In this document: one piece after another, positions 1-64,000 of the stretch | Position numbering within the stretch: the stretch's first letter is position 1 | How the letters are laid out: each line of letters opens with the position of its first letter | Source: Pristiophorus japonicus | Taxonomy: Eukaryota | NCBI RefSeq assembly: GCF_044704955.1 | Contig: NC_091993.1 | Coordinates: 117,490,001 to 117,554,000 of the forward strand | Length of the DNA stretch: 64,000 nucleotides | Direction: 5' to 3' | Made by a program: the position numbers and the translations under genes | The notes under the pieces: model-generated | The model's database searches: none | Seen by the model: the letters and a program-made list of their open reading frames with translations, nothing else | What the model was told of the DNA's origin: nothing

Positions 1-1765
1 AGGATAACTAAAGAAAAAGTAGGGCCCATTAGAAACAAAAAGGTAATCTGTGTGTGGAGTCAGATGTGTGTAGGGTTCTTAATGAATACTTTGCATCTGT
101 TTTCACAAAAGAAAGAGGTGATGCAGACATTGCAATGAGGGAGAAGGAACATGAAATATTGGATGAAATAAACATAGAGAGAGAGGAAGTATTAAGGGGT
201 TTAGCAGCTTTGAAAGTGGATAAGTCCCCAGGCCCGGATGAAATGTGTGCCAGGCTGTTGAGAAGCAAAAGAGGAAATAGCAGAGGCTTTGACCATCATT
301 TTCCAAACCTCTCTGGCAACAGGTGTGGTGCCTGATGACTGGAGGACTGCTAATGTTGTACCTCTGTTTAAAAAAAGGAGAAAGGGATAGACTGAGTAAT
401 TACAGGCCAGTCAGCTGAACCTCCGTGGTGGCAAAATTATTGGAAAAAATGGTGTGGGACAGGATAAATCTTCATTTAGAAACACACAGATTAATCAAGG
501 ACAGGCAGCATGGATGTTTTAAGGGAAGGTCGTGTCTGACTAACTTGATTGCATTTTTTGAGGAGGTAACAAGGAGGTTCGATGAGGGTAGCACGTTTGA
601 TGTAGTGTCTATGGATTTTAGCAAGGCTTTTGATAAGTTCCCACATGGCAGACTGGTTACAAAATTAAAAGCCCATGGGACCAAGGCAAAGTGGCAAGTT
701 GGATCCAAAATTGGCACAGAGGCAGGAAGCAAAGGGTAATGGTTGGTGGGTGGTTTTGTGACTGGAAGGCTGTTTCCAGTGGATTTCCACAGGGCTCAGT
801 ACTAGGTCCCTTGCTTTTTGTAGTATATATCAATGATTTAGACTTGAATGTAGAGTGTATGATTAAGAAGTTTGCAGATGATACAAAAATTGGCTGTGGG
901 GTTGATAATGAAGAAAGCTGTAGACTGCAGGAAGATATCATTGAACTGGTGGACAGAACAGTGACAAATGGAATTCAATCCGGAGAAGTGTGAGGCAATG
1001 CATTTCGGGAGGAGTAACAAGACAAGAGAATACACATTAAATGGTGGGACACTGAGAAGTGTAGAGGAACAAAGGGACCTTGGAGTGCAGGTCCACAGGT
1101 TCCTGAAAGTAGCAAGTTCGATAGATAAGGTGCGAAGAAGCCATTCGGAATACTTGCCTTCATTAGCCGAGGCATAGAATACAAGAGTAGGGAGGTTATG
1201 CTTGAACTGTATAAAACACTAGTTAGGCCACAGCTAGAGTACTACGTGCAGTTCTGGTCACCACATTACAGGAAAGATGTGATTGCACTGGACAGGGTAC
1301 AGAAGAGATTTACGAGGATGTTGCCTGGACTGGAGAATTTTAGCTATGAGGAAAGATTGGATAGGCTGGGATTGTTTTCTTTGAGGATGAGAGGAGATCT
1401 TATTGAGGTGTATAAAATTATGACGGACCTACATAAAGTGGATAGGAAGGACCTATGTCCCTTAGCAGAGGGGTCACCAACCAGGGGGCATAGATTTAAA
1501 GTAATTGGTAGGACGTTTAGAGGGGAAATGTTTTCACACAGGATAGTGGGGGTTTGGAACTCACTGCCTGAAAGGGTGGGAGAGGCAGAAACCCTCACCA
1601 CATTTAAAAGATACTTGGGCGTATACTTCGAGCGCCGTAACCTACAGAGCCATGGACCGCAAGCTGGAAAATGGGATTAGGCTGGATAGTGGGATTAGGC
1701 TGGATAACTAGTTGTGGGCCAAAATGGCCTCCTCCTGTGGTGTAAATTTCTATGATTCTATTCTA
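1..1765 (+). mobile_element. CR1 LINE, ORF2 RT portion and 3' tail, degenerate
   Basis: KSPGPD, DFSKAFDK, PQGSVLGP, KFADDTK motifs with frameshifts. Tail ttctatgattctat. Confidence 0.92.
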
Positions 1766-1769
1766 TGAA

Positions 1770-2010
1770 TGGGTCAAGTTAAGAAACAAAAGATGAGTCT
1801 AGATAGGGTGTAAATGGAGATGGCAGAATCATCAACAGCTGCTGTGAGAAAGAGAAAAAACATTAAAAAATAAAAAAATAGAGGCAGTTATTATAGTTTG
1901 AAATTGTTGAACTCGATGTTGAGTTCAGAAGGGTGTAAAGTGCCTAAACGAAATATGAGGTGCTATTCCTCGAGCTTGCCTTGAGATTCATTAGAACAGT
2001 GCAAGGGGCC
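1770..2010 (-). mobile_element. Penelope-like element fragment (GIY-YIG C-terminus)
   Basis: Reverse strand reads HCSNESQGKLEE*HLIFRLGTLHPSELNIEFNNF. Copy at about 51360-51600, probable remainder at 47790-47975. Confidence 0.65.
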
Positions 2011-2281
2011 CTTTAACTGCCACAACAGTAACTCTGTACCACCAACTCTCAGATATGGAAAAGAAACGGAAATTATCGGTAAAAATGGGTCACAGCCCAG
2101 TGTCAGCAGCCTCTCCTTGCTACCGGAGAAGGGGAAATTACACAGAAATTTAATCATCCAAAACCATTATATCAACCAGGCTTTTACATAAGTAACAAGG
2201 TTCCATTTGACAATCGTGCTCTCTTGGTTGACTACAAATGAAAATTAGGTGAATCTAAATATTATTTTGTTGTTTCAATAG

Positions 2282-2402
2282 GACTTGAATATTCTTGTGA
2301 AGTTTTTTCAACTGTATCACCAACAACTGCACATTCGACAAGTACAAATGTTATTTCCACTGATAATCAAAAACAATCTTCAGGATCCAAATCCACTAAA
2401 AG
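2282..2402 (+). CDS. Stalk exon of the upstream paralogous receptor copy
   Basis: Identical to 51873-51993 including splice sites. Confidence 0.82.
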
Positions 2403-3940
2403 GTACAATGTTCTCATTGTTGATGTTTTGACTGGCATTGCCTCCATCTGAGAGATTAAATATTCTTTAATAGTTTTGGCATAAGGGTTGATAATCATTT
2501 ATTATTTTGGAATGTTGCTCATCAGAATGGAAATGGTGGCTGGGTTTACATCATGCTGATGTGTTAGCTTCCTAATGAAAGTGCTGCCTTTGTTGGTAGG
2601 AAATAAGCACCTCCATTTTGCTGCCCCTCAGATGGTGCTCTTTGCATTATTCACTATGATTACTTCACCACTAACCTACTCTCATGGTTTGTGATGAGTT
2701 GCACTTATCAAACTTACCTTGCCGATATCTGTTCTGGTGTGGGGCTGACAGTAAAGTTTCTGTTGGTGAAAGTGAGCAATAGCAGCAATATATCTGCACC
2801 GCCCTTGATATCACCAGTGAGCAACATCTTACAGCTTTGGTCCAATTCTCAGTGTCGCTCACTACAACTGCAGGAAGTTTCTTCTCTTAAAATGTATTAT
2901 TGGGAGGTGGGCAATGCTGACAAGGTTACATTTATTGCCTGTCACGAGTTGCCCTGAGAAGGTGGCGCTGGGCCGCCTTCTTGATCTGCTGATCAATGCT
3001 GGTAAATAAGAAACTCCAGGATTTTGATCTAACAACAATGAAGAAACAGCAGTCTATTTCCAAGCCAGAACCGCGTGTAACTTAGAGGAGGTGGTGTTGG
3101 CATGATGTTGCTTGCCTTGATGGTACAGACCACTGGGCTCAGTGGTGATTTTAAGTTAAGCTGGGCAAGTTGTTTTTAATAGATTATCAGGATGTGGGTA
3201 TTGCTGCAGTGTGTCCTGTAGATGGTGCATACTGTAGTCACCGTGCGCCAGTGGTGGAGGGGATGGATTTTGAGCTCAGCAGCAGGGGCACTGACCATAT
3301 GCACTGCTTTGTCTTAAATAGTGGTGAACCTCAGTGTTATTACAGCTGCACCCATCCAAGGTGAGTACTCCATCACACTCCAGGCTTGAGCACTGCAGAT
3401 GATGGAGAGGCTCGGAGTGATCAGGGGCTGAGCCACTCGTTGCAGAGTACCCAGCCTCTTCCCTGCAGTTGTAGCCACAATGTTGACGTGGCTGGTCCAG
3501 TTAAGCTTCTGGCCATTTTAATTCAGTGCTTGAAGGAGGTTTTCTCCAATTCATATTCTGTGGCAAATATTTCACCCAATGTATAGGAATGTAAATACTT
3601 TTCCCTCCTCTGCTTATCTAGTTTCCCCATAAATGCCTCTGTACTATTTGCTGCAACTACTCCCTGTGGTAGCAAGTTCCACGTTCTCACCACCTTACAG
3701 CCATATATTGTGCACATGTTAATGAAGTTTGCTTCATTTGATCTTTATCTAATGATCACAAAGTTGACTTTCCTTCATAAGGCAAACACTAGTTTACTTT
3801 CCTAGCTAACGTCCCTTGGCTCTGCAGCTTTACATTGATGCACTATACTAAGATTACAGTGTAACCAGACGATAAATGTTTCAAACACACAGAAGACTCG
3901 TTTCCTTCGAATTATTTTATATTTCTTCCCTTTTGCTCAG

Positions 3941-4031
3941 TTACATTACATGGAACGTGGGACGCTGGCTGCTCTTTGCTCTCCTGGTGATTTGTACTAT
4001 TTCAGTCACAAGGTGTACGAGAAAATCTAAG
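3941..4031 (+). CDS. Transmembrane exon of the upstream paralogous copy
   Basis: Identical to 53532-53622. Confidence 0.84.
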
Positions 4032-4242
4032 GTAGGGATTAGGGACTTTATGTGAATCACTCCATCAATTTGTTCAAAAATATTGATCGCAGATACTATA
4101 AAGAAAAACTTGCATTGATATAAACCCTTTCATATTTTCGACGTGACAAGCGCTTTATCTCTAATTGGTGTCACTGGGGTAACTTACTAACTTCATAGTG
4201 TCGGCGATAATTCTGAGGGGCAGATCCCCCTCCCGTTCCAGA

Positions 4243-5125
4243 GCATGAATTGTGCGCATGGGAGCAGGAAATTACATGAGGACATAGACAGACTAAATGA
4301 GTGGGCAAAGCTATGGCAAGTGACGTTCAACATGGGGGAGTGTGAGATCATCTCCTTTGGATCAGAGGAACACAAATTGGAATATATTCTCAATGATGAG
4401 AGACTAGAAGATGTGAAGGAGTAAAGAGATTTAGATGTCCATGTACACACGTCACTGAAAGCTAGGGCACAAGTGCAAAAAGTAATCAAAAAGGCTCATG
4501 GAAAGTTGGCCTTCATTTTATGGGGATTGGAATTCAAAATTGAAGAAGTGATGTTTCTGTTGTACAGAGCCTTGGTCAGACCCCACCTGGAGTTCTGTGT
4601 TCAGTTTCGGGCGACGAACCTCAGGAAAGAAATACTGGCCTTGGAAGGAGTGTAGTGCAAATTCACCAGACTGATACTAGGGCTTAAAGTGTTCAATTAT
4701 AAAGAGAGATTACGTAAACTTGGTTGTATTCCCTAGAGTTTAGAAGGTTGAGGGCTGAAAGAATCAAAGAATTTAAAATTATTAAGGGATTCGATAGACT
4801 AGATAGGGAGAAATGACTTGCTTGGTGGGGGAATCCTCATAAGGGGGCATAATCTAAAAATTAGAGCTAAACCATTTAGGAGTAGAATTAGGAAGCACTT
4901 TTTCCCACAAAGGGTTGTGGGAACCTGGAACTGGCTGTGGATGCAGGGCCAATTGAAATTTTCACAGCTGAGATCACTAGATATTTGTTGGGTAAGGACA
5001 TCAAAGGGTATGGATCAAAGGCGGGTAAATGGAGTTGTGCCACTGATCAGCTGTGATCCAGTTATACAGTGGAACAGGCTCAAAGGGTTGAATGGGCTGC
5101 TCCTGTTGCTTTGTTCCTATGTAAC
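4243..5125 (+). mobile_element. CR1 LINE 3' fragment in the last intron (copy at about 53834-54716)
   Basis: LYRALVRPHLEFCVQF and RGHNLKI motifs with a CR1 3' tail. Confidence 0.88.
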
Positions 5126-5669
5126 CCGCCCGTTATAGAATCCCCCGACTTTCATTCTATTGATATAAAACAGTCGTTACAAGAAACGGAAGGGAAGAAA
5201 TGGGAAAGGCTACAAGAAAGCACTTTGCTGTAGGGCACCAGAGACAATGGTTTTCACACAAGAACACAGAGACAGTTAAACGTGTCCAGTCGAGCACCAA
5301 GGTGCTCAGACACAGACCCAATGCTATTGTTGCTGGGAACCTCGATTGGACTTTCGAAAATGTGTTTAACAAAGTAGACAAGTCAATCTTTTTCTGCTGT
5401 CAACTGTCCACCATCTAAGCTGCAGGAAAACATTTGTTGCATGTGAGTAAATGGTGTTACATGTATTCAAGAGGGGCCCAACTAGCACCTTTTCCCATCA
5501 CATGTGCAATAGTGATAGGGGAGGGAGGACTGTGATCTCAACACAGCTCCAGTCCATCACGAGCTTCTCCTCCATTTGTTGTCAGTTCCAGAATTCTGTT
5601 CTGACATGTAAAACAATGCATCATTCTCAGAATCAATGAATTTGATGCCTTAAATATTTTCTTTTTCAG

Positions 5670-5717
5670 TTACTCAATGAATCGGCTCGTCACAGCTTGA
5701 CCAATGTGGTAAAGTGA
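5670..5717 (+). CDS. Terminal coding exon of the upstream paralogous copy
   Basis: Identical to 55259-55306. AATAAA at 5816. Confidence 0.62.
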   Translation, partial: LLNESARHSLTNVVK

Positions 5718-7308
5718 TGATTCCCTGGTTACATCGACCTTGATGGAATATTGTGTCCTGATTAAACGTTCATTCTTCATCCAGCTTTGAACATTTATTT
5801 TTATCAATTGTAAATAATAAAATGGATTTCGGCATTAAATCAATTTGACCATTTAATTAGTAGAGGAAAAATCAAAACCTAACTCTGGCTGCATCCTTTA
5901 AGTTGTTGTCCCTCTGTCTGCATCTTAGTAATAATGTATAAGAACATAAGAAATAGGGGCAGGAGAAGGCCATACGGCCTCTTGAGCCGGTCCGCCATTT
6001 AATAAGATCATGGCTGATCCAATCATCGACTCAGGTCCACTTCCCTGCCCGCTCCCCATAACCGCTTATTCCCTTATTGGTTAAAAACTGTCTATCTCTG
6101 ACTTAAACTTATTCAATGACCCAGCTTCCACAGTTCTCTGAGGCAGCGAATTCCACAGATTTACAACCATCTGAGAGAAAAAATTGCTCCTCAACTCAGT
6201 TTTAAATGGACGGCCCCTTATTCTAAGATTATGCCCCCTAGTTCTAGTTTCCCCTATCAGTAGAAACATCCTCTCTGCATCCACCTTGTCAACCCCCTCC
6301 TACTCTTATACATTTCAATAAGATCACCTCTCATTCTTCTGAATGCCAATGAGTTAAGGCCCAACCTACTCAACCTTTCCTCATAAGTCAATCTCCTCAA
6401 CTCTGGAATCAACCTAGTGAATCTTCTCTGAACTGCCTCCAAAACAAGTATATCCTTTCTTAAATATGGAAACCAAAACTGCATGCAATATTCCAGGTGT
6501 GGCCTCACCTGTAGCCTGTATAACTGTAGCAAGACTTCCTTGCTTTTATACATCATCCTCTTTGCAATAAAGGCCAATATTCCATTGGCCTTTCTGATCA
6601 CTTGCTGTACCTACTTACTAACCTTTTGAGTTTCATGCACAAGTACCCCCAAGTCCTGCTGTACTGCAGAACTTTGCAATTTTTCTCCATTTAAATTATA
6701 ATTTGCTTTTCTATTATTTCTGCCAAAGTGGATACCTCACATTTTCCCATATTATACTCCATCTACCAACTTTTTGCCCACTCACTTGCTGATTTTTTGT
6801 GTCCTCACACATTGCTTTTCCTCCTATCTGTGTATTGTCAACAAACTTGGCTACGTTACGCTCGGTCCCTTATTCCAAGTCATTAATATAGATTGTAAAT
6901 AGTTGAGGTCCCAGCACTAATCCCTGCGGCACCCCACTAGTTACTGATTGCCAATCTGAGAATGAACCATTTATCCCGACTCTCTGTTTTCTGTGAGTTA
7001 GCCAATCCTCTATCCATGCTAATATATTACCCCAATCCCGTGGACTTTTATCTTGTACAATAACCTTTTATGTGGCATCTTGTCAAATGCCTTCTGGAAA
7101 TCCAAATACACCACATCCACTGGTTCCCCTTTATCCACCCTGTTCATTACATCCTCAAAGAATTCCAGCAAATTTGTCATACATGACTTCCCTTTCATAA
7201 ATCCACGCTGACTCTGCCTGACTGAATTATGTTTTTCTTAATGTCCTGCTACTGCTTCTTTAATAATGGAATCCAACATTTTCCCAACCACAGATGTTAG
7301 GCTAACTA

Positions 7309-10300
7309 ACATAGTGCAAGGACCAAGGATGTCTCGGAGCGGGTGCTGGACATTCTGAAAAGGGAGGGTGAACAGCCAGTTGTCGTGGTGCACATAGGTA
7401 CCAACGATATAGGTAAAAAGGGGATGAGGTCCTACGAGACGAATTTAAGGAGCTAGGAGCTAAATTTAAAAAGTAGGACCTCAAAAGTAGTAATCTCGGG
7501 ATTGCTACCAGTGCCACGTGCTAGTCAGAGTAGGAATCGCAGGATAGCTCAGATGAATACGTAGCTTGAGCAGTGGTGCAACAGGGAGGGATTCAAATTC
7601 CTGGGGTATTGGAACCGGTTCTGGGGGAGGTGGGACCAGTACAAACCGGACGGTCTGCACCTAGGCAGGACCGGAACCAATGTCCTAGGGCTGGTGCTGT
7701 TGGGAAAGAGTTAAACTAATATGGCAGGGGGATGGGAACCAATGCAGGGAGACAGAGGGAAAAAATATGGAGACAGAAGCAAAAGACAGAAAGGAGATGA
7801 GTAAAAGTGGAGGGCAGAGAAACCCAAGGCAAAAAACAAAAATGGCCACTGTACAGCAAAATTCTCAAGGGTCAAAGTGTAATAAAAAGGCAAGCCTGAA
7901 AGCTCGGTGCCTCAATACGAGGAGCATTTGGAACCCAGGAGAGGGCTCTGAGCTAGTTAGAGTAGGTGAGAGCTCAGATGAACAGGACCCCAAGAAAGAA
8001 TGCAAAAGGCGGGAGGCAACAGAGCAGAGTAGCACTGGGGTAAGTAAACCACAAGGTGATAGGAAGGGACAATATGTATGAATATAAAGGGGCTGCAGGA
8101 GGGGTCAAAACTAAACATCATGGTTTAAAAACTCGTATTAAAACACTCTACCTAAACACATGCAGCATTCGAAATAAAGTAAAGGAGTTGACGGCACAAA
8201 TCATTACAAATGGGTATGATTTGGTGGCCATTACAGAAACGTGGTTACAGGGTGGCCAAGACTGGGAATTAAATATACAGTGGTATCTGACAATTTGGAA
8301 AGATAGACAAGAAGGGAAAGGAGGTGGGGTAGCTCTGTTAATAAAGGATGATATCAGGTCAGTTGTGAGAGACGATATTGGCTCTAATGAACAAAATGTT
8401 GAATCATTGTGGGTGGAGATTAGAGATAGTAAGGGGAAAAAGTCACTGGTGGGCGTAGTTTATAGGCCCCCAAATAATAATTTCACAGTGGGGCGGACAA
8501 TAATCAAGGGAATAATGGAGGCATGTGAAAAAGGAATGGCAGTAATCATGGGGGATTTTAACCTACAAATCGATTGGTCAAATCAAATTGCACGGGGTAG
8601 CCTGGAGGAGGAATTCATAGAATGCATTCGGGATTGTTTCTTAGAACAGTATGTTACAGAACCTATAAGGGAGCAAGCTATCTCAGATCTGGTCCTGTGT
8701 AATGAGACAGGTATAATAAACGATCTCCTAGCAAAAGATCCTCTCAGAATGAGTGATCACAGTATGGTTGAATTTGTAATACAGATTGAGGGTGAGGAAG
8801 TAGTGTCTCAAACGAGCGTACTATGCTTAAACAAAAGGGGACTACAGTGGGATGAGGGCAGAGTTGGCTAAAGTAGACTGGGAACATAGACTAAACGGTG
8901 GTGCAATTGAGGAACAGTGGAGGACTTTTAAGGAGCTCTTTCATAGTGCTCAACAAAAATATATTCCAGTGAAAAAGAAAGGCGGTAAGAGAAGGGATAA
9001 CCAGTCGTGGATAACCAAGGAAATAAAGGAGAGTATCAAATTAAAAACCAATGCGTATAAGGTGGCCAAGGTTAGTGGGAAACTAGAAGATTGGGAAAAT
9101 TTTAAACGACAGCAAAGAATGATTAAGAAAGCAATAAAGAAAGGAAAGATATATTACGAAAGTAAACTTGCGCAAAACATAAAAACAGATATTAAAAGCT
9201 TTTACCGATATATAAAACGGAAAAGAATGATTAAAGTAAATGTTGGTCCCTCAGAAGATGAGAAGGGGGATTTAATAATGGGAAATGTGGAAATGGCTGA
9301 GCCCTTAAACAATTATTTTGCTTCGGTCTTCACAGTGGAAGACACAAAAACCATGCCAAAAATTGCTGGTCATCGAAATGTGGGAAGGGAGGACCTTGAG
9401 ATAATTACTATCACTAGGGGGGTAGTGCTGGACAGGCTAATGGGACTCAAGGTAGACAAGTCCCCTGGTCCTGATGAAATGCATCCCAGGGTATTAAAAG
9501 AGATGGCGGAAATTATAGCAGATGCATTCGTTATAATCTACCAAAATTCTCTGGACTCTGGAGAGGTACCAGCGTATTGGAAAGCAGCTAATGTAACGCC
9601 TCTGTTTAAAAAAGGAGGCAGACAAAAGGCAGGTAACTATATACCGGTTAGTTTAACATCTGTAGTGGGGAAAATGCTTGAAGCTATCATTAAGGAAGAA
9701 ATAGCGGGACATCTAGATGGGAATAGTGCAATCAAGCAGACGCAACATGGATTCATGAAGGGGAAATCATGTTTAACTAATTTACTGGAATTCTTTGAGG
9801 ATATAACGAGCATGGTGGATAGAGGTGTACCGATGGATGTGGTGTATTTAGATTTCCAAAAGGCATTCAATAAGGTGCCACACAAAAGGTTACTGCAGAA
9901 GATAAATGTACGTGGAGTCAGAGGAAATGTATTAGCATGGATCGAGAATTGGCTGGCAAATAGAAAGCAGAGAGTCGGGATAAATGGGTCCTTTTCGTGT
10001 TGGACATCGGTGGTTAGTGGTATGCCACAGGGCTAGGTGCTGGGACCACAACTGTTTACAATATACATAGATGACCTGGAAGAGGGGACAGAGTGCAGTG
10101 TAACAAAATTTGCAGATGACACAAAGATTAGTGGGAAAGCAGGTTGTGTAGAGAGGCTGCAAAGAGAATTAGATAGGTTAAGCGAATGGGCTAAGGTTTG
10201 GCAGATGGAATACAATGTCGGAAAATGTGAGGTCATCCACCATGGAAAAAAATAACAGTAAAATGGAATATTATTTGAATGGGGAGAAATTACAACATGT

Positions 10301-11006
10301 TGCGGTGCAGAGGGACCTGGGGGTCCTTGTGCATGAATCCCAAAAAGTTAGTTTGCAGGTGCAGCAGGTAATCAGGAAGGCGAATGGAATGTTGGTCTTC
10401 ATTGCGAGAGGGATGGAGTACAAAAGCAGAGAGGTCCTGCTGTAACTGTACAGAGTATTGGTGAGGCCACACCTGGAGTACTGCGTGCAGTTTTGGTCAC
10501 CTTACTTAAGGAAGGATATACTAGCTTTGGAGGGGGTACAGAGACGATTCACTAGGCTGATTCCGGAGATGAGGGGCTATGATAGATTACTCGTTGGAGT
10601 TCAGAAGGATGAGGGGCGATCTTATAGAAACATTTAAAATCATGAAAGGGATAGACAAGATCGAGGCAGAGAGGTTGTTTCCACTGGTCGAGGAGACTCG
10701 AACTATGGGGCACAGCCTCAAAATACGGGGGAGCCAATTTAAAACCGAGTTGAGAAGGAATTTCTTCTCCCAGAGGGTTGTGAATCTGTGGAATTCTCTA
10801 CCCAAGGAAGCAGTTGAGGCGAGCTCATTGAATTTACTCAAATCACAGATAGATAGATTTTTAACCAATAAGGGAATTAAGCGCTATGGGGAGCGGGCGG
10901 GTAATTGGAGCTGAGTTCACGGCCAGATCAACCATGATCTTGTTGAATGGCGGAGCAGGCTCGAGGGGCTAGGTGGCCTACTCCTGTTCCTAATTCTTAT
11001 TATGTT
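7309..11006 (+). mobile_element. 5'-truncated CR1 LINE nested in the opposite orientation (copy at 56898-60595)
   Basis: ORF1 tail, endonuclease ORF 8056-8871, RT ORFs 8852-10914, 3' tail. Flanked by a duplicated CTA. Confidence 0.92.
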
Positions 11007-13307
11007 CTAGTCTATAGCTTCCTGTTTTTTGTCTGCCTCCTTTTTAACTAGTGGTGTTACATTTGCAATCTGCTGGGACCTCCCCAGAATACAGGACATT
11101 TTGGTAAATTACAATGAATGCATCAACTATTCCTGCCGCTACTTCTCTTAAGACCCTAGGTTGCAAACTATCAGGTCCAGGGGATTTATCTGCCTTTAGT
11201 CCCATCATCTTACTGAATATGACCTCCTTAATGATTGTGATTGTGTTAAGTTCCTCCCGCCGCCCTTGACTGTCCACTGTTGGGATATTGTTAGTGACCT
11301 CTACCGTAAAGACTGATACAAAATATTTGTTCAGAGTTTCTGCCATCTCCATGTTCCCCATTACTAATTCCCCGGTCTCGTCCTCTGAGGGATCACCATT
11401 TACTTTAGCCACTCTTTTCCTTCTTATATGCGTATAGAAACTCTTGCTATCTGTTTTTATATTTCGTGCTGGTTTTCTTTCATAGTCTATCTTCTCTTTC
11501 TTAATCAATATGGAGGTTAAAATCGCCCATAATTATTGCTGTTCCCTTTTTAGAAGCCCCCACTATTTCCTGGTTTATACTCCGACCAACAGATTTGCTA
11601 CTGTTAGGGGGCTTATAGACTACGCCCACCAGTGAATTTTTCCCCTATTATTCCTCATCTCCACCCAAAATGTTTCAACATCCTGATCATTTGAGCCAAT
11701 ATCATTTCTCACTATTGCAGTGATTCCACCCTTAAACAACAGAGCTACCCCACCTCCTTTTCCTTTCTGTCTGACCTTCTGGATTGTGAAATACCTCTGA
11801 ATATTTAGATCGCAGTCCTGGTCACTTTACAACCACGTCTCTGTAATGGCTATCAGATCATACCCATTTGTATCTATTTGTGCCGTCAACTCATCCATTT
11901 TGTTGTGAATGCTACGTGCATTTAGACAAAGAGCCTTTAAATTTGTTTGACCCTTTTTTCCTGCTTGTTTCCTCTCTCCTTCAAACTCACTTTCTTTATT
12001 ATTGCTTTCTACTTCCAGCTTTACTACCCTCCCTACTGAATCTATTTTTAGGTTCCCATCCCCCTGCCAAACTAGTTTAAACCCTCCCCAACAGCACTAG
12101 CAACCGCCCCCCACCCCACGAGGATATTGGTCCCGGCTCTGTTGAGGTGCACCCCGTCCGACTTATTCAGGTCCCCCCTCCCCCAGAAGTGGTCCCAATG
12201 CCTCAGGAAACTAAAGCCCTCCCGCCTGCACTATCTCTCCAGCCATGCATTCATCTGCTCTATCCTCCTGTTTCTTTACTCACTAGCTCATGGCACCGGG
12301 ATGTACCATCCGGAGATTACTACCTGTTGAAGTCCTGCTTTTTAATTTCTCTCCTAGCTCCTTAAACTCTGCCTGCAGGACTTTATCCCTCTTTCTACCT
12401 ATGTCATTGGTCCCAATATGGACCACGACCTCTGGCTGTTCACCCTCTCCACCCAGAATGCCCTGCAGCCGCTCAGTGACATCTTTGACCCTGGCACCAG
12501 GGAGGCAACATACCATCCTGGAGTCACGTCTGTGGCCGCAGAAACGTCTGCCTGTTCCCCTAACTATCGAATCCCCTACCACTACTGCTCTTCATTCTTC
12601 TTCCTCCCCCCCTCCCCCGCCCACACCGTGTAGCTGAGCCACCTGTGATGCTGTGGATTTGGCTCTGGCTGCATCAGAACAGAGTACCGGTTGGAGTACG
12701 AGATGGACTCGGGGGACTCCAGCACTTCCTGTCTCGTCCTCCTGTCCGGCGGTCACCCAATCCCTTTCTGCCTGTACACTCTTAAGCTGCGTGGTGACCA
12801 CCTCTCAGAACGTGCTACCCACATAGCTCTCAGTCTCGTGGATGCACTGCAGTGAATCCAGCCACCGCTCAAGCTCCAAAACACGGAGCTCAAGTTGGTG
12901 CAGCTGGAGACACCTCCTGCACACATGGATGTCCCGGCTGTGCGAAGCAGCCAGGATTTCCCACATGCCACAGGATGTGTAATTCATGGGACTGAGCTGC
13001 CCTGCCATCCCTCTAGTTAGATTCGGAACGATCAAGTAGAATTAAATTCTAAACCTTAGCAAAACACAGCCTGCCGCTACTCAGCAAACAGCTGATTTAA
13101 TTAATTAGTTTTCCTTAGATAATAAAGATCACTTATCTATTTAATTGCAGTTCCTAACTTCCACCAATGCCCAAAGTTTTTTAAAGAAAAGAAAAATACT
13201 CACCAATCCACCAGCCAATCACTTACCTGCTTGACTATGACGTCATACTTCGATTTCGAATCTTTTTACTTTTTCTCCCTTACTTTAGTCGCTGCTGCAG
13301 CTCCTTG

Positions 13308-13375
13308 CTCCCGATCTCCGACTCCTCCTGATCTCCGGCTCCTCCTGATCCGTGGCTCCTCCCGATCTCAGGCTC
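13308..13375. repeat. 17-bp tandem repeat x4 in the CR1 5'UTR
   Basis: CTCCYGATCTCCGGCTC-like units visible directly. Confidence 0.85.
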
Positions 13376-13687
13376 CTCCGACTGCCGCTGCCCTTTAGAA
13401 GTCCTGTGTTCATGTCTCGCGATGCTCGCTCCTCATGAATGGGAGTGTGCCCACTTCCTGTCTGCATAACTTAACTTCTTGTTTCACATTTTTATTACAA
13501 TTATTGTGTCAATTTTGTAAACCTGAAAATATCACAAACACATGAACAATATTCTGTAAGAAATCGGCTACTTGACTTATTCATGCACTGGAAGCCGGTA
13601 GCTCTCATAATATTTTGCACTTTTACTTGGGATGGAACTATAATGTATGCACCTGTGAGTATGCTCACAGGTTGGTAGAGCTGTTGC

Positions 13688-14437
13688 CCCTGGAAGAGTC
13701 CGTGTTCCATGTTTTAATTGAATATGCGAGGTTGCAGCCCTTATTCCAATATTTGAAGGGGCTGCTCCTCAAATTCTGGTTGCACTTCAGTCCCACACTC
13801 CTGATCTTTGGACACCCTGTGCGGAGGCGAGCGGGCAGGTCGGAAGGCCTCCTGGAAGGACTGCTCCTAGGCATGACCAAGGAGGCCATCAGCCGGTCCA
13901 GGCAGCGGGCAGTCGAGGGGGTCGTTCAGCCTGATTGCCTGCCTCTCTTCCGTGGTTACATCCGAGCCATGATGTCCCTGGAGATGGAGCACGCGGTGTC
14001 CACCGGTACGCTCGCGGCCTTCCGCGAGAGGTGGGCACCGGAGGGATTGGAGTGAATCATCAGCCCCGGCAATCAAATTTTAATTTGATTTTATGTCTAA
14101 ATATTAATTTATTTAACTTGCTGGTTTTAGTGCCCTCCGCCATTTAGCCAGGGCTCACTTGTATAATTTGTGTTTCAGTGCCCTCAAAAAAAAACAAGGG
14201 GGCACTTGAAAAGTTTTTGGAGTGTGCCCCCCCCCTTTCAGGGGGCACTTGATTACTGATTGCAACTAAAATAGTTGTAGAGCTGTTGCACCAGTGGAAC
14301 TGAAGTGCATCATCACCCCTGGCAACCAAATTTTAATTTGATTTAAGTTCACGGTAAAAAGATAATTTGTTTATTTGTCGGTTTTAGTGCCCCTCGTTAA
14401 TAAGAGGACACTTGATTTATAGTTTTGCACTAAAATA
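13688..14437 (+). mobile_element. Tx1-clade non-LTR retrotransposon 3' fragments (long + short)
   Basis: ORF2 C-terminus EESVFHVLIEYARLQPLF...LLLGMTKEAI..., 3'UTR ending ctaaaata. Copy from about 63276. Confidence 0.78.
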
Positions 14438-14665
14438 GTTGTAGAGCTGCTGCATTGTGAGTTGCTTAACCAATCACGTGATGTTCACAAGACTCAATAA
14501 AACCCCAGACAGTTGGGTCTAGGTCATCCATGATGAGGTATGCGGTTGTGAGCCGAGTGGATGAACTGGTAATGTGTAGTGTGATTGTTAAACCTTTGTT
14601 AATAAACTAACTAGTTCTGAATAGCAATGTGTTGCTATGAATTCTTAAGCAAAGAACCCATGAAG

Positions 14666-15580
14666 TTTGGGTCCCCAGTGGAGTGCACTCTATCTGGGAG
14701 TCCTCCCTCTATTTATTGGGAACTTGGCCTGGAGGGTGTTGCACGGAGCAGTCCCGTGCAATAAGTTTTTAAGTTGGGTCACGGGCTCTCAGGCTGCCTC
14801 TAATTTCTGCGGTCGGGAAGAGCCCGTGTTCCACATTTTTAACGAATGTGTGTGGTTGCAGCCCCTCTTCCAATATTTGAAGGGGCTGCTCCTGAAATTC
14901 TGGTTGTACTTCAGTCCCACACTCCTGATCTTTGGGCACCCTGTGCGGAGGGGAGCAGGCAGGTCGGAAGGCCTCCTCATAGGAGTGCTCCTGGGCATGG
15001 CCAAGTGGGCCATCAGCCAGTCCAGGCAGCGGGCAATCGAAGGGGTCATTCAGCCCGACTGCCTGCCTCTCTTCCGAGGTTACATCCGAGCTAGGGTGTC
15101 CCTGGAGATGGAGCATGCAGTGTCCTCCGGTAAACTCACAGCCTTCCATGAGAGTTCAGCGCCGGAGGGACTGGAGTGAATCATCACCTCTGGCAACCAA
15201 ATTTTAAATTGATTTTATGTGCAAAAGTTAATTTGTTTAATTTGGCACTTTTAGTGCTCCACCCCCATTTAGCCAGGGGGCACTTGTATAATTTGTGTTT
15301 CAGTGCCCTCAAAAAAAAACAAGGAGGCACTTGAAAAGTTCTTTTGGAGTGTGTCCCCCCTCCCCCCACCTCCGCTTTAATCAGGGGGCACTTGATTATT
15401 GTCTTCAACTAAAATAGTTGTAGAGCTGTTGGGCCGGTAGAACTGGAGTGCATCATCACCCCTGGCAACCAAATTTTAATTTGATTTAAGTTCATGATAA
15501 AAGGTTAATTTGTTTATTTGTCGGTTTTACTGTCCCCTATTAATAAGGGGGCACTTGATTTATAGTTTTGCACTAAAATA
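14666..15580 (+). mobile_element. Tx1-clade 3' fragments, second unit (long + short)
   Basis: LAWRVLHGAVPCN...NFCGREEPVFHIFNEC zinc-finger region typical of L1/Tx1 ORF2 C-termini. Confidence 0.8.
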
Positions 15581-15828
15581 GTTGTAGAGCTGTTGCATTG
15601 TGAGTTGCTTAGCCAATCACGTGATGTTCACAGACTCAATAAAACCCCAGTCAGTTGGGTCTAAGTCATCCACGATGAGGTATGCAGTTGTGAGCCTAGT
15701 GGATGAACTGGTAATGTGTAGTGTGATAGTTTATTAACAAAGGTTTAACAAACTAGTTCTGAATAGCAATGTGTTGCTATGAATACTTAAGCAAAGAATC
15801 CATGAAGAAAATACATTACAAGAACAGT

Positions 15829-29254: not shown

Positions 29255-32200
29255 TTCTCTCTCTCTCTCTCTCCCCCCCCGCCCCACCACTATTCTCTCT
29301 CCCCACGATGTCTCTCTCTCTCACTCTCCCTTCTCCCACTCTCCCTCCCTTCCCCACCATCTCTCGCTCTCTCACCCCTCCCCCACTCTCTCTCTCTCAA
29401 CCCCACCCTTCTTCTCTTTCTCCCTTCCACCCTCTCCTCTTTCTCTCTCCTCCCCGTCTCTCTCTCTCCCCCTTAGTCTCTCTCTGTCTTCCCCTGTCTC
29501 TCGTTTGCCCTATCTCTCTGTCTCTGTCTCATCCGTCCCTCTCTCTCTCTCCCCCCGACCCCGTCTCTCTCCACCTCATCCCTCCCCCGCTTCTCGCTCT
29601 CTCTCCCCAGTCTCTCTCTCACTCTGCCATCCTCCCTCATCTCTCTCTCTCCCTCTCTCTCTCCCACCAGTCTCTCTCTTGCCCGGTCTCTCTCTTACCC
29701 CCATCTCATTCTCTCTTCGCACCCCCCCATCATTCGCTCTCTTCTCCCCCCATCTCTCTCTCTCTCACTAACTCATCTCTCTCTCTCCCCGCCCCATCCT
29801 CCACCCACGTATCTCTCTCTGTTTGCCCTCAATCTCTCTCTCCCCCCTTTCATCTCTCTGTCCGCCCCTCTCAATCTCGCTCCCCTGCCCCTCCTCTCTC
29901 GCTCCCCCTTCCTCCTCTCATCTCTCTTTCCGCCCAATCTCCCCCCCCGCCCCCTCTGCCTCTTTCTCTCTCTTCTCCCCCTCCTCTCTCACTCTCTCTC
30001 CCTCCCTCTACTGTCCCTGTTCCCCGTTTCTCTGTCTCTCTCGCCCCCTCTCTCTCTCTTCCCCCCTCTCTTATCTCTCTCACCCCGTGGCTCTATCTCT
30101 CCCATCTCTCTCCCCCCTTTTCTCTCTCCCCTCTCTCTCACCACCCCCCCCCCCAAGTCTTGCTCCTCCCAGTCTCTCTATCTCTCCTTCCAGTCTCTCT
30201 CTTCCCCACCCCCCCATCTCTCTCTTTCACCCCCCTTCTCCCTCTCTCTATCTTTCCCCCCCATCTTTCTCTCTTCCCCCATCTTTCTCTCTTCCCCCCA
30301 TCTTTCTCTCTTCCCCCATCTCTCTCTCCCCTCCATGTCTCTCTCTCTCTCTCTTACCCCCCCACTTTTCGCTTCCCCCATCTCTCTCTCTTCCTCCCTG
30401 ACTCTCTCTCTCTCTCTCTCTCACACCGCTCCACCCCCCAGTCTCTCTCTCTCTTTCTCTGCTCCCAGTCTCTCTCCCCCTGCTCGCATATCTCTCTCTC
30501 GCCCCCTTTCATTTTACTCGACCCCCCCCTTGCTCTTCCCCTACCCCAACCCCGCCAATCTCTCTCTCCCCCCCGTCTCTCTCTCCCCCTTCCCTGCTCC
30601 CTCTCTCTCTCTCCCTCACCCCAGTCTCTCTCGTCCATGGGTTTCTCTCTTTCTTCCCCCCCATCTCTTTCTTTCCCCCCGTCTCTCTCTCTTCTCCCTC
30701 CCCCTGTCTCTCTCTCTCTCTTCCCCCCTGTCTCCCTCTCTCTTAGACCCCCGTCTCTCTCTCACCCGATCCCCCCCAGTCCCTCTCTCCCCCCCATGTC
30801 TCTCTCTTCACCCCATCTTTCTCTCCCCCCCGCCACCCCCCGTCTTTTACTTCCCCACCCACCGCTCCCCACCGGTCTCCCTCTCCCTCTGTCCCCAGTC
30901 TCTCTCTCTCCCTGCTGTCATATTCTCGCTCCCTCCCTTTCATTTTACTCAACCCCCTCCCCCCGCCGTGTCTTGCTCCCCCCAGTCTCTCTATCTCTCT
31001 TCCCCCCCCATCTCCCTCTCCCCATCATCTCTTTGTCTCTGCCCCACGTCTCTCTCTGTCTCTCTCCCCCTTCTCCTCTCTCTTCCCCGTTTATCTATCT
31101 GTCCCCGCAGACTCTACCAACCCCCCATGTCTCTCTCCCCCACCACCCCCCCCACTGAGGTGAATGATCAGCCATGATCTTATTGAATGGTGGTGCAGGC
31201 TCAAAGGGCCGAATGGCCTACTCCTGCACCTATTTTCTTTGTTTCTATATTTCCACTCTCTTTCTCCCCCCCCCCCCCCCCCCCACATCTCACTGTCTCT
31301 GATCCGTGTGTCTCTGGCTCTTCCCGCTTCTCCACACTCTCTCCCCACATTCTCCTCTCTCTCTAACTTGCCTCCATGTCTCTCTTCTCACCGTCTATCT
31401 CTACCCCCCCACCCCCCCGCCCCGTCTCTCTCTCAATTCCAACCCCCCAGATCTCTCTCTCTTCCCCCCTCCCCTGTCTATCCCTATCTCACCCCCACCC
31501 AGTCTCTCTCTTCCCCGCCGGCCCTCGCTCTCCCCCCGCTCTTTCTCTTCCCCCTCTCATCTCTCTCTCCACCCTCTCCCCCCGACTCCCTCTCTCTCTC
31601 TACCACTCCTTTCTCACTCTCTCTCCCTTCATCTACTCTTTCTGTCCGCCCTGCTTCTCTGTCTCTCTCTCCCCCCTCCTCTCTCTCTCTCTTCCCCCCT
31701 CTCTTATTTCCCACCTTTCCCTTTGTGTGTCTCTCTCTCACCCTTCTCTCTCCCCCCTTTCCTCTTTCTCTCCCCTACCCATATCTTTCTCCACCGTCTC
31801 TCTTTCTCTCTTCCCCTGTCTCTCTCTCCCCCTTGTCTCTCTCCCCTGTCTCTCTCTCTCTTACTCTCTCTCCCCCTCTCCTATCTCTCTCCCCCTTTCT
31901 CTCTTGCCCCTCTCCTCTTTCTTTCTCCCCCCCACCCCGTGTCTTGCACCCCCCAATCTCTCTATCTCTCTCTTCCCCCATCTCTCTGCCCCATGTCTCT
32001 CTCTCTCTCCCCTGTCTCTCTATCACGCCCCCGAATCTCTCTCTTCGCCCCCACCCCGTGTCTCACTCGTTCTCTTCCCCCCATCTTTCCCTTTTCCCCA
32101 CATCTCTCTCTCTTTCCCCCGTGTCTCTTGCTCTCTTGCCCCCCGCCTAACCTGGTGTCTCCCCTCTCATATCTAGTTCACACTCACCCCCTCTCACCTA

Positions 32201-32585
32201 TCTCTCTCCCTCCCTTTCATTTCTCTCTCCCCCCTTCTCTCTCTCTCTCTCCCACCCGTCGCCCTCTCTCCCGCCCGTCTCTCACTCTCTCTCTCCCTCT
32301 CCCCTTCTCTCTCTCGCCCCAGTCTCTCTGTCTCACCACCGTGTTTCTCTCTCTTCCCCCCTCGTCTCTCACTCTCTCTTCCCCCCCATCTCTCTCTCAA
32401 ACCCCCTCTCCGTCTCTCTCTCTCTCTCTCTCTCTCTCCCATCCCCCGTCTCCCTCTCTCTCTCTCCGCTCCTCCCCTCCGTCTCCCCTCTATCCCCCAT
32501 CTGCCATTTCTCTCTCTTCCCCCCTCTCTTCTCTCCCCACCCCCCCCCAACCACCCCCTCCCCCCGCCCCGTCTCTCTCTCTCCC
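29255..32585. repeat. C/T-rich low-complexity tract, left part
   Basis: Degenerate (TC)n/Cn blocks, strongly purine-depleted on the + strand. Confidence 0.95.
31155..31250 (+). mobile_element. Isolated CR1 3'-tail insertion within the C/T tract
   Basis: gatcagccatgatcttattgaatggtggtgcaggctc...ctactcctgcacctattttc matches the CR1 3' ends elsewhere in the window. Confidence 0.85.
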
Positions 32586-50900: not shown

Positions 50901-51356
50901 TTACGAGGATGTTGCCTGGACTGGAGAATTTTAGCTATGAGGAAAGATTGGATAGGCTGGGATTGTTTTCTTTGAGGATGAGAGGAGATCTTATTGAGGT
51001 GTATAAAATTATGACGGACCTACATAAAGTGGATAGGAAGGACCTATGTCCCTTAGCAGAGGGGTCACTAACCACGGGGCATAGATTTAAAGTAATTGGT
51101 AGGATGTTTAGAGGGGAAATGTTTTCACACAGGATAGTGGGGGTTTGGAACTCACTGCCTGAAAGGGTGGGAGAGGCAGAAACCCTCACCACATTTAAAA
51201 GATACTTGGGCGTATACTTCGAGCGCCGTAACCTACAGAGCCATGGACCGCAAGCTGGAAAATGGGATTAGGCTGGATAGTGGGATTAGGCTGGATAACT
51301 AGTTGTGGGCCAAAATGGCCTCCTCCTGTGCTGTAAATTTCTATGATTCTATTCTA
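47980..51356 (+). mobile_element. CR1 LINE (ORF1 end, endonuclease, RT, tail), degenerate, in intron 3
   Basis: HIGTND (ORF1), YFNARSL and VGDFN (APE endonuclease), then RT as in 1-1765. Confidence 0.92.
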
Positions 51357-51872
51357 TGAATGGGTCAAGTTAAGAAACAAAAGATGAGTCTAGATAGGGT
51401 GTAAATGGAGATGGCAGAATCATCAACAGCTGCTGTGAGAAAGAGAAAAAACATTAAAAAATTAAAAAATAGAGGCAGTTATTATAGTTTGAAATTGTTG
51501 AACTCGATGTTGAGTTCAGAAGGGTGTAAAGTGCCTAAACGAAATATGAGGTGCTATTCCTCGAGCTTGCCTTGAGATTCATTAGAACAGTGCAAGGGGC
51601 CCTTTAACTGCCACAACAGTAACTCTGTACCACCAACTCTCAGATATGGAAAAAAAACGGAAATTATCGGTAAAAATGGGTCACAGCCCAGTGTCAGCAG
51701 CCTCTCCTTGCTACCGGAGAAGGGGAAATTACACAGAAATTTAATCATCCAAATCCATTATATCAACCAGGCTTTTACATAAGTAACAAGGTTCCATTTG
51801 ACAATCGTGCTCTCTTGGTTGACTACAAATGAAAATTAGGTGAATCTAAATATTATTTTGTTGTTTCAATAG

Positions 51873-51993
51873 GACTTGAATATTCTTGTGAAGTTTTTTC
51901 AACTGTATCACCAACAACTGCACATTCGACAAGTACAAATGTTATTTCCACTGATAATCAAAAACAATCTTCAGGATCCAAATCCACTAAAAG
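51873..51993 (+). CDS. Exon 4: Ser/Thr-rich stalk (GLEYSCEVFSTVSPTTAHSTSTNVISTDNQKQSSGSKSTK)
   Basis: Acceptor ttgtttcaatag, donor AG|GTACAA, phase 1-2, open frame, mucin-like composition. Confidence 0.85.
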
Positions 51994-53531: not shown

Positions 53532-53622
53532 TTACATTACATGGAACGTGGGACGCTGGCTGCTCTTTGCTCTCCTGGTGATTTGTACTATTTCAGTCAC
53601 AAGGTGTACGAGAAAATCTAAG
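53532..53622 (+). CDS. Exon 5: transmembrane exon (SYITWNVGRWLLFALLVICTISVTRCTRKSK) with intramembrane Arg
   Basis: Long pyrimidine tract ending ttttgctcag, phase 2 in, donor AAG|GTAGGG phase 0. Hydrophobic helix followed by a basic stop-transfer stretch. Confidence 0.87.
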
Positions 53623-55258: not shown

Positions 55259-55306
55259 TTACTCAATGAATCGGCTCGTCACAGCTTGACCAATGTGGTA
55301 AAGTGA
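55259..55306 (+). CDS. Exon 6: terminal coding exon, short cytoplasmic tail LLNESARHSLTNVVK*
   Basis: Acceptor ttttctttttcag, phase 0 matches exon 5, TGA at 55304-55306, AATAAA at 55405. Confidence 0.65.
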   Translation, partial: LLNESARHSLTNVVK

Positions 55307-55404
55307 TGATTCCCTGGTTACATCGACCTTGATGGAATATTGTGTCCTGATTAAACGTTCATTCTTCATCCAGCTTTGAATATTTATTTTTATCAATTGT
55401 AAAT

Positions 55405-55410
55405 AATAAA
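55405..55410 (+). terminator. Putative polyadenylation signal of the receptor gene
   Basis: AATAAA about 100 nt after the predicted stop. Counterpart at 5816-5821 in the upstream copy. Confidence 0.5.
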
Positions 55411-61400: not shown

Positions 61401-64000
61401 GCAGTCCTGGTCACTTTACAACCACGTCTCTGTAATGGCTATCAGATCATACCCATTTGTATCTATTTGTGCCGTCAACTCATCCATTTTGTTGTGAATG
61501 CTACGTGCATTTAGACAAAGAGCCTTTAAATTTGTTTGACCCTTTTTTCCTGCTTGTTTCCTCTCTCCTTCAAACTCACTTTCTTTATTATTGCTTTCTA
61601 CTTCCAGCTTTACTACCCTCCCTACTGAATCTATTTTTAGGTTCCCATCCCCCTGCCAAACTAGTTTAAACCCTCCCCAACAGCACTAGCAACCGCCCCC
61701 CACCCCACGAGGATATTGGTCCCGGCTCTGTTGAGGTGCACCCCGTCCGACTTATTCAGGTCCCCCCTCCCCCAGAAGTGGTCCCAATGCCTCAGGAAAC
61801 TAAAGCCCTCCCGCCTGCACTATCTCTCCAGCCATGCATTCATCTGCTCTATCCTCCTGTTTCTTTACTCACTAGCTCATGGCACCGGGATGTACCATCC
61901 GGAGATTACTACCTGTTGAAGTCCTGCTTTTTAATTTCTCTCCTAGCTCCTTAAACTCTGCCTGCAGGACTTCATCCCTCTTTCTACCTATGTCATTGGT
62001 CCCAATATGGACCACGACCTCTGGCTGTTCACCCTCTCCACCCAGAATGCCCTGCAGCCGCTCAGTGACATCTTTGACCCTGGCACCAGGGAGGCAACAT
62101 ACCATCCTGGAGTCACGTCTGTGGCCGCAGAAACGTCTGCCTGTTCCCCTAACTATCGAATCCCTTACCACTACTGCTCTTCATTCTTCTTCCTCCCCCC
62201 CTCCCCCGCCCACACCGTGTAGCTGAGCCACCTGTGATGCTGTGGATTTGGCTCTGGCTGCATCAGAACAGAGTACCGGTTGGAGTACGAGATGGACTCG
62301 GGGGACTCCAGCACTTCCTGTCTCGTCCTCCTGTCCGGCGTCACCCAATCCCTTTCTGCCTGTACACTCTTAAGCTGCGTGGTGACCACCTCTCAGAACG
62401 TGCTACCCACATAGCTCTCAGTCTCGTGGATGCACTGCAGTGAATCCAGCCACCGCTCAAGCTCCAAAACACGGAGCTCAAGTTGGTGCAGCTGGAGACA
62501 CCTCCTGCACACATGGATGTCCCGGCTGCGCGAAGCAGCCAGGATTTCCCACATGCCACAGGATGTGTAATTCATGGGACTGAGCTGCCCTGCCATCCCT
62601 CTAGTTAGATTCGGAACGATCAAGTAGAATTAAATTCTAAACCTTAGCAAAACACAGCCTGCCGCTACTCAGCAAACAGCTGATTTAATTAATTAGTTTT
62701 CCTTAGATAATAAAGATCACTTATCTATTTAATTGCAGTTCCTAACTTCCACCAATGCCCAAGGTTTTTTAAAGAAAAGAAAAATACTCACCAATCCACC
62801 AGCCAATCACTTACCTGCTTGACTATGACGTCATACTTCGATTTCGAATCTTTTTACTTTTTCTCCCTTACTTTAGTCGCTGCTGCAGCTCCTTGTTCCC
62901 GATCTCCGACTCCTCCTGATCTCCGGCTCCTCCTGATCCGTGGCTCCTCCCGATCTCAGGCTCCTCCGACTGCCGCTGCCCTTTAGAAGTCCTGTGTTCA
63001 TGTCTCGCGATGCTCGCTCCTCATGAATGGGAGTGTGCCCACTTCCTGTCTGCATAACTTAACTTCTTGTTTCACATTTTTATTACAATTATTGTGTCAA
63101 TTTTGTAAACCTGAAAATATCACAAACACATGAACAATATTCTGTAAGAAATCGGCCACTTGACTTATTCATGCACTGGAAGCCGGTAGCTCTCATAATA
63201 TTTTGCACTTTTACTTGGGATGGAACTATAATGTATGCACCTGTGAGTATGCTCACAGGTTGGTAGAGCTGTTGCCCCTGGAAGAGTCCGTGTTCCATGT
63301 TTTAATTGAATATGCGAGGTTGCAGCCCTTATTCCAATATTTGAAGGGGCTGCTCCTCAAATTCTGGTTGCACTTCAGTCCCACACTCCTGATCTTTGGA
63401 CACCCTGTGCGGAGGCGAGCGGGCAGGTCGGAAGGCCTCCTGGAAGGACTGCTCCTAGGCATGGCCAAGGAGGCCATCAGCCGGTCCAGGCAGCGGGCGG
63501 TCGAGGGGGTCGTTCAGCCTGATTGCCTGCCTCTCTTCTGTGGTTACATCCGAGCCATGATGTCCCTGGAGATGGAGCACGCGGTGTCCACCGGTACGCT
63601 CGCGGCCTTCCGCGAGAGGTGGGCACCGGAGGGATTGGAGTGAATCATCAGCCCCGGCAATCAAATTTTAATTTGATTTTATGTCTAAATATTAATTTAT
63701 TTAACTTGCTGGTTTTAGTGCCCTCCGCCATTTAGCCAGGGCTCACTTGTATAATTTGTGTTTCAGTGCCCTCAAAAAAAAAAACAAGGGGGCACTTGAA
63801 AAGTTTTTGGAGTGTGCCCCCCCCCTTTCAGGGGGCACTTGATTACTGATTGCAACTAAAATAGTTGTAGAGCTGTTGCACCAGTGGGACTGAAGTGCAT
63901 CATCACCCCTGGCAACCAAATTTTAATTTGATTTAAGTTCACGGTAAAAAGATCATTTGTTTATTTGTCGGTTTTAGTGCCCCTCGTTAATAAGAGGACA

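Follow-up and report, generated by a model that had tools for sequence, protein, structure and literature searches.

A Tx1-clade retrotransposon with a strong preference for one site inside a Gypsy long terminal repeat

A Tx1-clade non-LTR retrotransposon of Pristiophorus japonicus shows a strong, although not strict, preference for a 14-bp site in the long terminal repeat (LTR) of a Gypsy family, where its copies lie one after another, all in the same direction. Stacked neighbors mostly begin at the same element position and mostly differ in their 3' untranslated regions (UTRs), so newcomers likely borrow the front end of the resident copy. Younger relatives have likely moved to a new landing site, with no diagnostic change in the endonuclease at the first switch. 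We describe the cassette as it occurs in a stretch of 64,000 nucleotides, hereafter called the window, and then its elements, their target, and their relatives across the genome.

Results

The motif listed in a first-pass annotation of the window was confirmed at five places (13672, with 2 mismatches, and 14274, 14438, 15417, and 15581), the last four each directly behind a Tx1 3' end, and the LTR-like termini and 5-bp duplication ascribed to the host could likewise be read in the sequence (Table 1). At up to 2 mismatches, the motif has seven matches in the window against a chance expectation of 0.05; the two extra ones, at 63260 and 63864, fall within a tandem segmental duplication whose ~49.6-kb unit is 99.4% identical between window positions 1-14410 and 49597-64000. 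Copies a and b start at different element positions, a at approximately position 6501 of the 7,138-bp full-length copy described below. Copy a' extends about 145 bp further at its 5' end and is joined to the LTR at 14666 without a full target copy. The CACCTG hexamer of the window ends 18 nt upstream of the Tx1 insertion point.

Table 1. Features of the Tx1-filled Gypsy LTR in the window
Feature	Positions	Strand	Remarks
Left 5-bp target duplication of Gypsy host, GGAAC	13634..13638	+	read from sequence
Gypsy LTR, left 35 bp	13639..13673	+	includes CACCTG (13650-13655)
14-bp target copy 1	13674..13687	+	first base altered
Tx1 copy a	13688..14275	+	5'-truncated; ORF2 C-terminus and long 3' UTR; end AAAATAGT
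14-bp target copy 2	14276..14289	+	
Tx1 copy b	14290..14439	+	150 bp; short 3' UTR type
14-bp target copy 3	14440..14453	+	
LTR right part, first copy	14454..14665	+	without last ~13 bp
Tx1 copy a'	14666..15418	+	weak zf-RVT match
14-bp target copy 4	15419..15432	+	
Tx1 copy b'	15433..15582	+	truncation point that of b; 92% identical to b
14-bp target copy 5	15583..15596	+	
LTR right part, second copy	15597..15820	+	terminus ..ATACATTACA
Right 5-bp target duplication of Gypsy host, AGAAC	15821..15825	+	
Second whole cassette, only its beginning in the window	63228..64000	+	extends past window end; ~49.6-kb segmental duplication

The inserts had initially been read as a stack of repeated insertions. 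Tx1 copies separated by target copies are indeed present, but the four inserts do not represent four independent events in one LTR, since the right part of the LTR occurs twice, b and b' share both their truncation and 92% identity, and a' lacks a target duplication. The two LTR right parts are 94% identical. Copies a and a' are 86.5% identical in coding sequence and 89% in the UTR, no closer than a is to other loci; the window copies have the older end type (AAAATAGT) and reach up to 91% (a) and 87% (a') identity with long copies. The block of b and the LTR right part has been duplicated locally in addition, by either of two routes: two LTRs sharing b gained a and a' separately before a deletion brought them together, or a tandem duplication took place long ago and was altered later. 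The cassette is present in three copies on the same contig. A mobile composite unit of Tx1 and LTR right part was rejected, as the 14665/14666 junction occurs only in the three copies of the local segmental duplication.

A full-length Tx1 copy of 7,138 bp, which carries frameshifts and stops, was recovered at the same LTR site directly behind the LTR left part (locus L144/L183). Exo_endo_phos and RVT_1 domains scored above cut-off in L144, with zf-RVT just below; ORF1, whose start was found in L183, has a zinc knuckle (zf-CCHC, E 9e-4) just under cut-off. A 346-residue piece containing the endonuclease is 46% identical to ORF2 of Xenopus laevis Tx1L (YTX2_XENLA, P0030; target Tx1D), scoring 323 bits compared with 79 bits for human L1 ORF2p. 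Copies show 5' truncation, target site duplication (TSD), and a conserved 3' end, and the 42 starts observed behind the motif are spread over element positions 1 to 7065. Domain and protein comparisons thus bear out the Tx1 and Gypsy identities proposed at the outset, and the element is assigned to the Tx1 clade (L1 group) of non-LTR retrotransposons, apparently nearer to Tx1L than to L1 in the strict sense.

The host belongs to a Gypsy (Ty3) family in decay, now represented mostly by solo LTRs of ~273 bp. Both termini were present in 24 of 30 empty copies (219 to 275 bp), and in 21 of these 24 the 5-bp duplication was exact or had 1 mismatch. Direct LTRs with TG..CA ends, a primer binding site (PBS), a polypurine tract (PPT), and a short TSD were all found. 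One two-LTR element (L208; G000:C5:233608000-233617999) has LTRs identical at 232 of 254 positions, a PBS-like TGGCGAC, a purine tract, and TATTT/CATTT flanks; the same tract precedes the LTR in L190/L044. In L190, fragments of RVT_1, RT_RNaseH, Integrase_H2C2, and rve_3 precede the LTR in that order, which is the Gypsy order, and the best PDB match of its pol is the Ty3 RT/RNase H (E 5e-17), with retroviral matches at 2e-8 or weaker. Gag and protease were not seen in the only two internal regions found, both decayed. A PBS pattern gave 10 matches, 3 with the host LTR and 1 of these the two-LTR element; a 10-purine pattern gave 28 matches, mostly solo LTRs, with no common tract. The PBS, PPT, and pol rule out a MITE or other DNA transposon as the 273-bp host. 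Other Gypsy families in the genome (L200, L202-L206) have the same LTR end and PBS, and L208 holds a Tx1 remnant of ~15 bp in its 5' LTR only.

The target was originally given as 16 bp. The duplicated sequence is in fact 14 bp, TGTAGAGCTGTTG(C/A), located 35 bp inside the LTR, and the initial GT of the 16-mer is the end of the element (..AAAATAGT). This division follows from off-target insertions, in which the downstream copy of the duplication is always preceded by T and the upstream copy in 9 of 13. The earlier spelling of the empty site, which had only 4 exact matches, was one T short, the extra T being seen at 5' junctions of other loci. The site reads ..CACAGGTT, then TGTAGAGCTGTTGC, then ATTGTGAG, and the corrected 30-mer has 594 exact matches (reversed control, 0). 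The Tx1 3' end followed by the motif has 2,784.

Preference was measured with a 3'-end pattern that stops before the flank (516 matches), taking the 90 first listed on three contigs, one per region. Fifty-nine matched the target with no more than 2 mismatches and another 3 adjoined the LTR right part with a damaged motif, so that most of these flank-blind 3' ends (62/90) lay at the target and not in diverse flanks; the specificity claimed earlier therefore stands as a strong preference but not as a strict one, the other 28 lying elsewhere or at a damaged site. A duplication of 13 to 14 bp, with consensus GG(G/T)T^TGTAG (the caret marks the insertion point), accompanied 13 of the 28, and none was found at the other 15. 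The off-target duplications are target-like, beginning with T (13/13), G (11/13), T (11/13), and A (10/13), with GG at -4/-3 in 8/13; CACCTG at -24..-19 was not enriched in these 13 sites of the older subfamily. Three of the 90 ends had entered a look-alike site on the antisense strand of the ORF2 of a LINE (LQPYNPP codons) that we take to be L2. This look-alike was found in 10 unrelated loci of 1.17 Mb of sequence and is thus probably several times commoner than the LTR site (roughly 5-fold, an estimate). An array of a ~36-bp unit from it, arranged in tandem and itself hit by Tx1, was seen in L151 (minus strand, 6000-7100). In L105, near 8000, a Tx1 3' end is followed by a short target match and then by what is presumably a tRNA-Val-like sequence.

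Occupancy was determined for 30 LTR left ends from an exact 33-mer (1,002 matches), a sampling that favors well-preserved LTRs. Tx1 was present at the target in 24 of the 30, with many differing truncation points; 4 were empty, 2 of them with the site deleted, and 2 were unclear.

Stacks revealed a further regularity. In 42 of 62 adjacent pairs, the two copies begin at element positions no more than 3 nt apart, compared with a cross-locus null mean of 0.65 and maximum of 5. Same-start neighbors average 90.7% coding identity against 88.1% for unrelated copies, and none of the 29 measurable pairs reached 97%. The end type (AAAAGAGT versus AAAATAGT) differs in 9 of the 29 pairs and UTR length by more than 20 nt in 14; the 3' UTR of the upstream copy matches another locus better than its neighbor in 24 (22/27 without two mis-parsed rows), the neighbor being the best match in 5. 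Rare variants are shared at 8% between same-start neighbors, 2% between controls, and 7% in 4 different-start pairs. Some local duplication, such as that of a two-unit block in L098, accounts for the slightly higher identity and variant sharing of neighbors. Rare variants are fewer in the upstream member of 16 of 22 pairs and in the downstream member of 5 (p = 0.02, two repeated L098 rows dropped), in line with R1, where, according to passages of PMC2718515, the TSD on the upstream side of the resident is the entry point of new copies. The first 30 nt of same-start neighbors were no more alike than the remaining coding part (0.89 versus 0.91), so that no short copied patch was visible.

The best 39 of 2,680 endonuclease candidates (96 to 97% DNA identity) were chosen blind to target. 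Four lie at the LTR site (group A); one CR1-type family accounts for 14, all at one site (group B), and 17 occupy the homologous position of another (group C), with 4 unclassified; both families are presumably CR1, a label drawn from the translated flanks. In all of the A, B, and C targets, 18 nt separate the end of CACCTG from the insertion point downstream. Of 24 upstream bases, 13 agree between A and B (p ~0.002, uncorrected for the choice of the stretch compared), and since the B and C sites are homologous, the agreement counts as one independent coincidence rather than two. At the 5' end of full-length B and C copies, the element's own target copy is followed by a relic of the LTR target. 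Of 11 B leaders, 6 differ from the full-length A leader by no more than 1 mismatch; in the other 5, and in 14 of 15 C leaders, the relic has lost one base and acquired substitutions (one C row was mislocated).

Diagnostic sites were compared among 13 A, 14 B, 17 C, and 3 older copies. Between the 13 A and 14 B copies no diagnostic nucleotide was found in the endonuclease, the first being at 960 of 3,891; the 25 in ORF2 cluster towards the C-terminus. About ten ORF2 residues outside the endonuclease differ between groups, five of them near the C-terminal zinc knuckle, and five endonuclease residues differ between B and C. As LTR-site and first CR1-site relatives lack a diagnostic difference, endonuclease sequence alone does not explain site choice. 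The first-pass annotation proposed a sequence-specific APE endonuclease. An APE domain is present, but the endonuclease as sole determinant is doubtful, the same enzyme being found at another site in relatives. Divergence from the group majority is 3.2% in A, 2.4% in B, and 1.7% in C, the groups having been sampled in different ways. In a midpoint-rooted tree, C is nested in B and B in A, with 98% support for B+C+L247 and for C+L245. The order A to B to C is drawn from the leaders and the divergence rather than the tree, since AU tests reject neither the LTR-site copies (p 0.246) nor the first-CR1-site copies (p 0.117) as clades.

Individual copies add detail. L247 (G000:C18:59778966-59787966), a member of the CR1-site clade, occupies the LTR target, so the old site was still usable by the younger lineage. 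L254 (G000:C20:77889941-77898941) is full length with the first CR1 site as its 5' flank and the second as its 3' flank, and is either a recombinant or a transitional insertion. Two sets of full-length copies on different contigs (L295, L297, and L298; L292, L293, and L296) agree in variant bases of the LTR sequence immediately before the target; it looks as if the upstream flank had been carried in RNA and copied in.

Discussion

Target-primed reverse transcription at a site read by the ORF2 protein, with target regeneration, re-entry upstream, and homology-aided 5' joining, is in our judgment the probable account of these arrangements. The ORF2 protein would likely nick the 14-bp LTR sequence and prime reverse transcription there. 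By analogy with L1, R1, and Tx1L, the bottom-strand nick is expected at ..GGTT^TGTAG and the top-strand nick ~14 nt downstream, and such a stagger would regenerate the target at each insertion. A later copy would usually enter the target copy upstream of the resident one; its cDNA may then pair with the homologous 5' end of the resident and copy through to the target, which would leave two copies truncated alike but with different 3' UTRs. Recognition is likely two-part, combining an upstream context (CACCTG..CAGG) with the core TGTAG at the nick, as in the younger relatives that moved to CR1 sites the upstream context is retained and the 14-mer is a different one.

Shared 5' ends could also arise if stacks were local tandem duplications of one insertion, by unequal exchange between target copies. 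Duplications do occur: a two-unit block is duplicated in L098, UTRs are near-identical in L109 and L187, b and b' in the window fit the pattern, and R1 arrays expand by unequal exchange according to the consulted parts of PMC5932611. As the source of the stacks, this is improbable given the absence of any of 29 pairs at 97% coding identity, the differing end types (9/29) and UTR lengths (14/29), and the sharing of only 8% of rare variants. It should be kept in mind for homology-aided joining that old duplicates would also have drifted apart and that some stacks do contain duplications. That the motif is merely part of the Tx1 3' UTR, or that filled LTRs were amplified by Gypsy without any targeting, is refuted as a general account by the 594 exact empty sites and the spread of truncation points, the motif also being found at 5' junctions, where the 42 starts seen range over element positions 1 to 7065; L208, moreover, is filled in one of its two LTRs only. 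What such a reading explains correctly is that the element supplies the first GT of the 16-mer, and b and b' may have been copied along with the LTR.

Site choice itself might lie mainly with RNA-DNA pairing. Transcripts would include the upstream flank and the downstream target, a relaxed endonuclease would nick many CACCTG..GG-N-N^T sites, only sites that pair with the RNA would be completed, and a source copy in a new site would propagate that site. The lack of a diagnostic endonuclease change between LTR-site and first CR1-site copies, the target-derived leaders at the 5' ends of full-length copies, and the variants common to three LTR-site copies from different contigs, reaching as far as 20 nt upstream of the target, all speak for it. 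So do known systems: R1Bm needs downstream target for accurate priming and SART1 uses target-like 3' bases (parts of PMC7265360), and co-transcription strengthens targeting (passages of PMC4494074). We nevertheless regard pairing as the main chooser as rather unlikely. Off-target downstream copies are not systematically corrected to the LTR target beyond the element's terminal T, the ORF2 residues outside the endonuclease, including those near the zinc knuckle, do differ between groups, and L247, of the CR1-site clade, sits at the LTR target. Far less likely still is tethering of Tx1 by a host protein bound to CACCTG, the element not reading the hexamer itself. CACCTG, which we take to be an E-box bound by host factors, does end at one fixed distance, exactly 18 nt, before the insertion point in each of the three targets, but in the CR1 targets it is antisense coding sequence (QV codons), the homology of the two CR1 sites leaves one independent coincidence, and the likeness also covers the CAGG beside the nick (13/24 upstream bases, p ~0.002).

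A longer history can be sketched, tentatively and at somewhat less than even confidence. One Tx1 lineage may have filled most copies of the Gypsy LTR and then jumped to one CR1 family and later to another, each jump keeping the previous target as a 5' relic and the first being made with no endonuclease change. Specificity would be set by an upstream DNA signal together with the target-derived ends of the RNA (or the C-terminal domain of ORF2), and insertion would be finished by homology-directed pairing with a downstream match, including a resident copy. Switching might be driven by the filling of a target, as suggested by the high occupancy of a single LTR position.

In the standard view of APE LINEs, the endonuclease leads the choice of target, and the joining of the LINE 5' end is, to our knowledge, poorly understood. 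The relatives described here form a natural experiment: near-identical young copies (1.7 to 3.2% from the group majority) occupy three different 14-bp sites, with no endonuclease residue difference at the first switch and five at the second. Thousands of stacked copies, furthermore, record the 5' joining step. Target choice and 5' joining thus both become testable with few swaps, which is relevant to the use of site-specific LINEs for gene insertion.

Like the element studied here, Tx1L targets another transposon; its target is a piggyBac-type DNA transposon rather than a Gypsy LTR, and its target duplication is 23 bp rather than 14 bp. In vitro, its endonuclease nicks its own target almost exclusively (parts of PMC1950540). 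Drosophila R1 resembles our element as an APE LINE with a 14-bp TSD and microhomology at 5' junctions, and differs in belonging to the R1 clade and targeting 28S rDNA. Tandem R1 copies arise when a newcomer inserts into the TSD that flanks a resident on its 5' side (PMC2718515); the microhomologies are of 1 to 5 nt and dimers have distinct truncations, with no capture of a neighbor's truncation point in the consulted passages of PMC2718515 and PMC5932611.

The earlier suggestion that the family may be undescribed holds for the family studied here only, since the crocodilian Tx1-8_Crp and Tx1-4_AMi, of the Tx1-Mar / Keno subgroup, already prefer LTR retrotransposons (Kojima 2015, PMC4494074, in part), a preference common to them and to our element. 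LTR targeting itself therefore adds one more family with a known habit. Compared by description rather than by target sequence, the relevant passages on the crocodilian families contain no shared 5' truncation points, 80% occupancy, or CR1 switch. The same source calls a Tx1 family target-specific when one sequence type makes up more than 20% of flanks; here one type accounts for 62 of the 90 flank-blind 3' ends. Beyond known LTR targeting lie the shared truncation points, the near-saturation, and the switch without endonuclease change, none of which was found in narrow literature searches. Exact-phrase searches of open-licence text, which do not establish absence from print, yielded no literature on this Tx1 family, Tx1 in sharks, shared truncation in tandem LINEs, or moves of Tx1 to CR1.

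Additional features of the window

Three further features were recorded. The segmental duplication at G000:C17 ~117.45-117.56 Mb comprises at least three copies of a ~49.6- to 50.3-kb unit, 99 to 99.6% identical. A 25-bp segment is inverted between the first and second LTR right parts (14585-14609 versus 15727-15751). Long degenerate CT-rich arrays at 29260-32440 and 37221-39461 give extreme strand skew.
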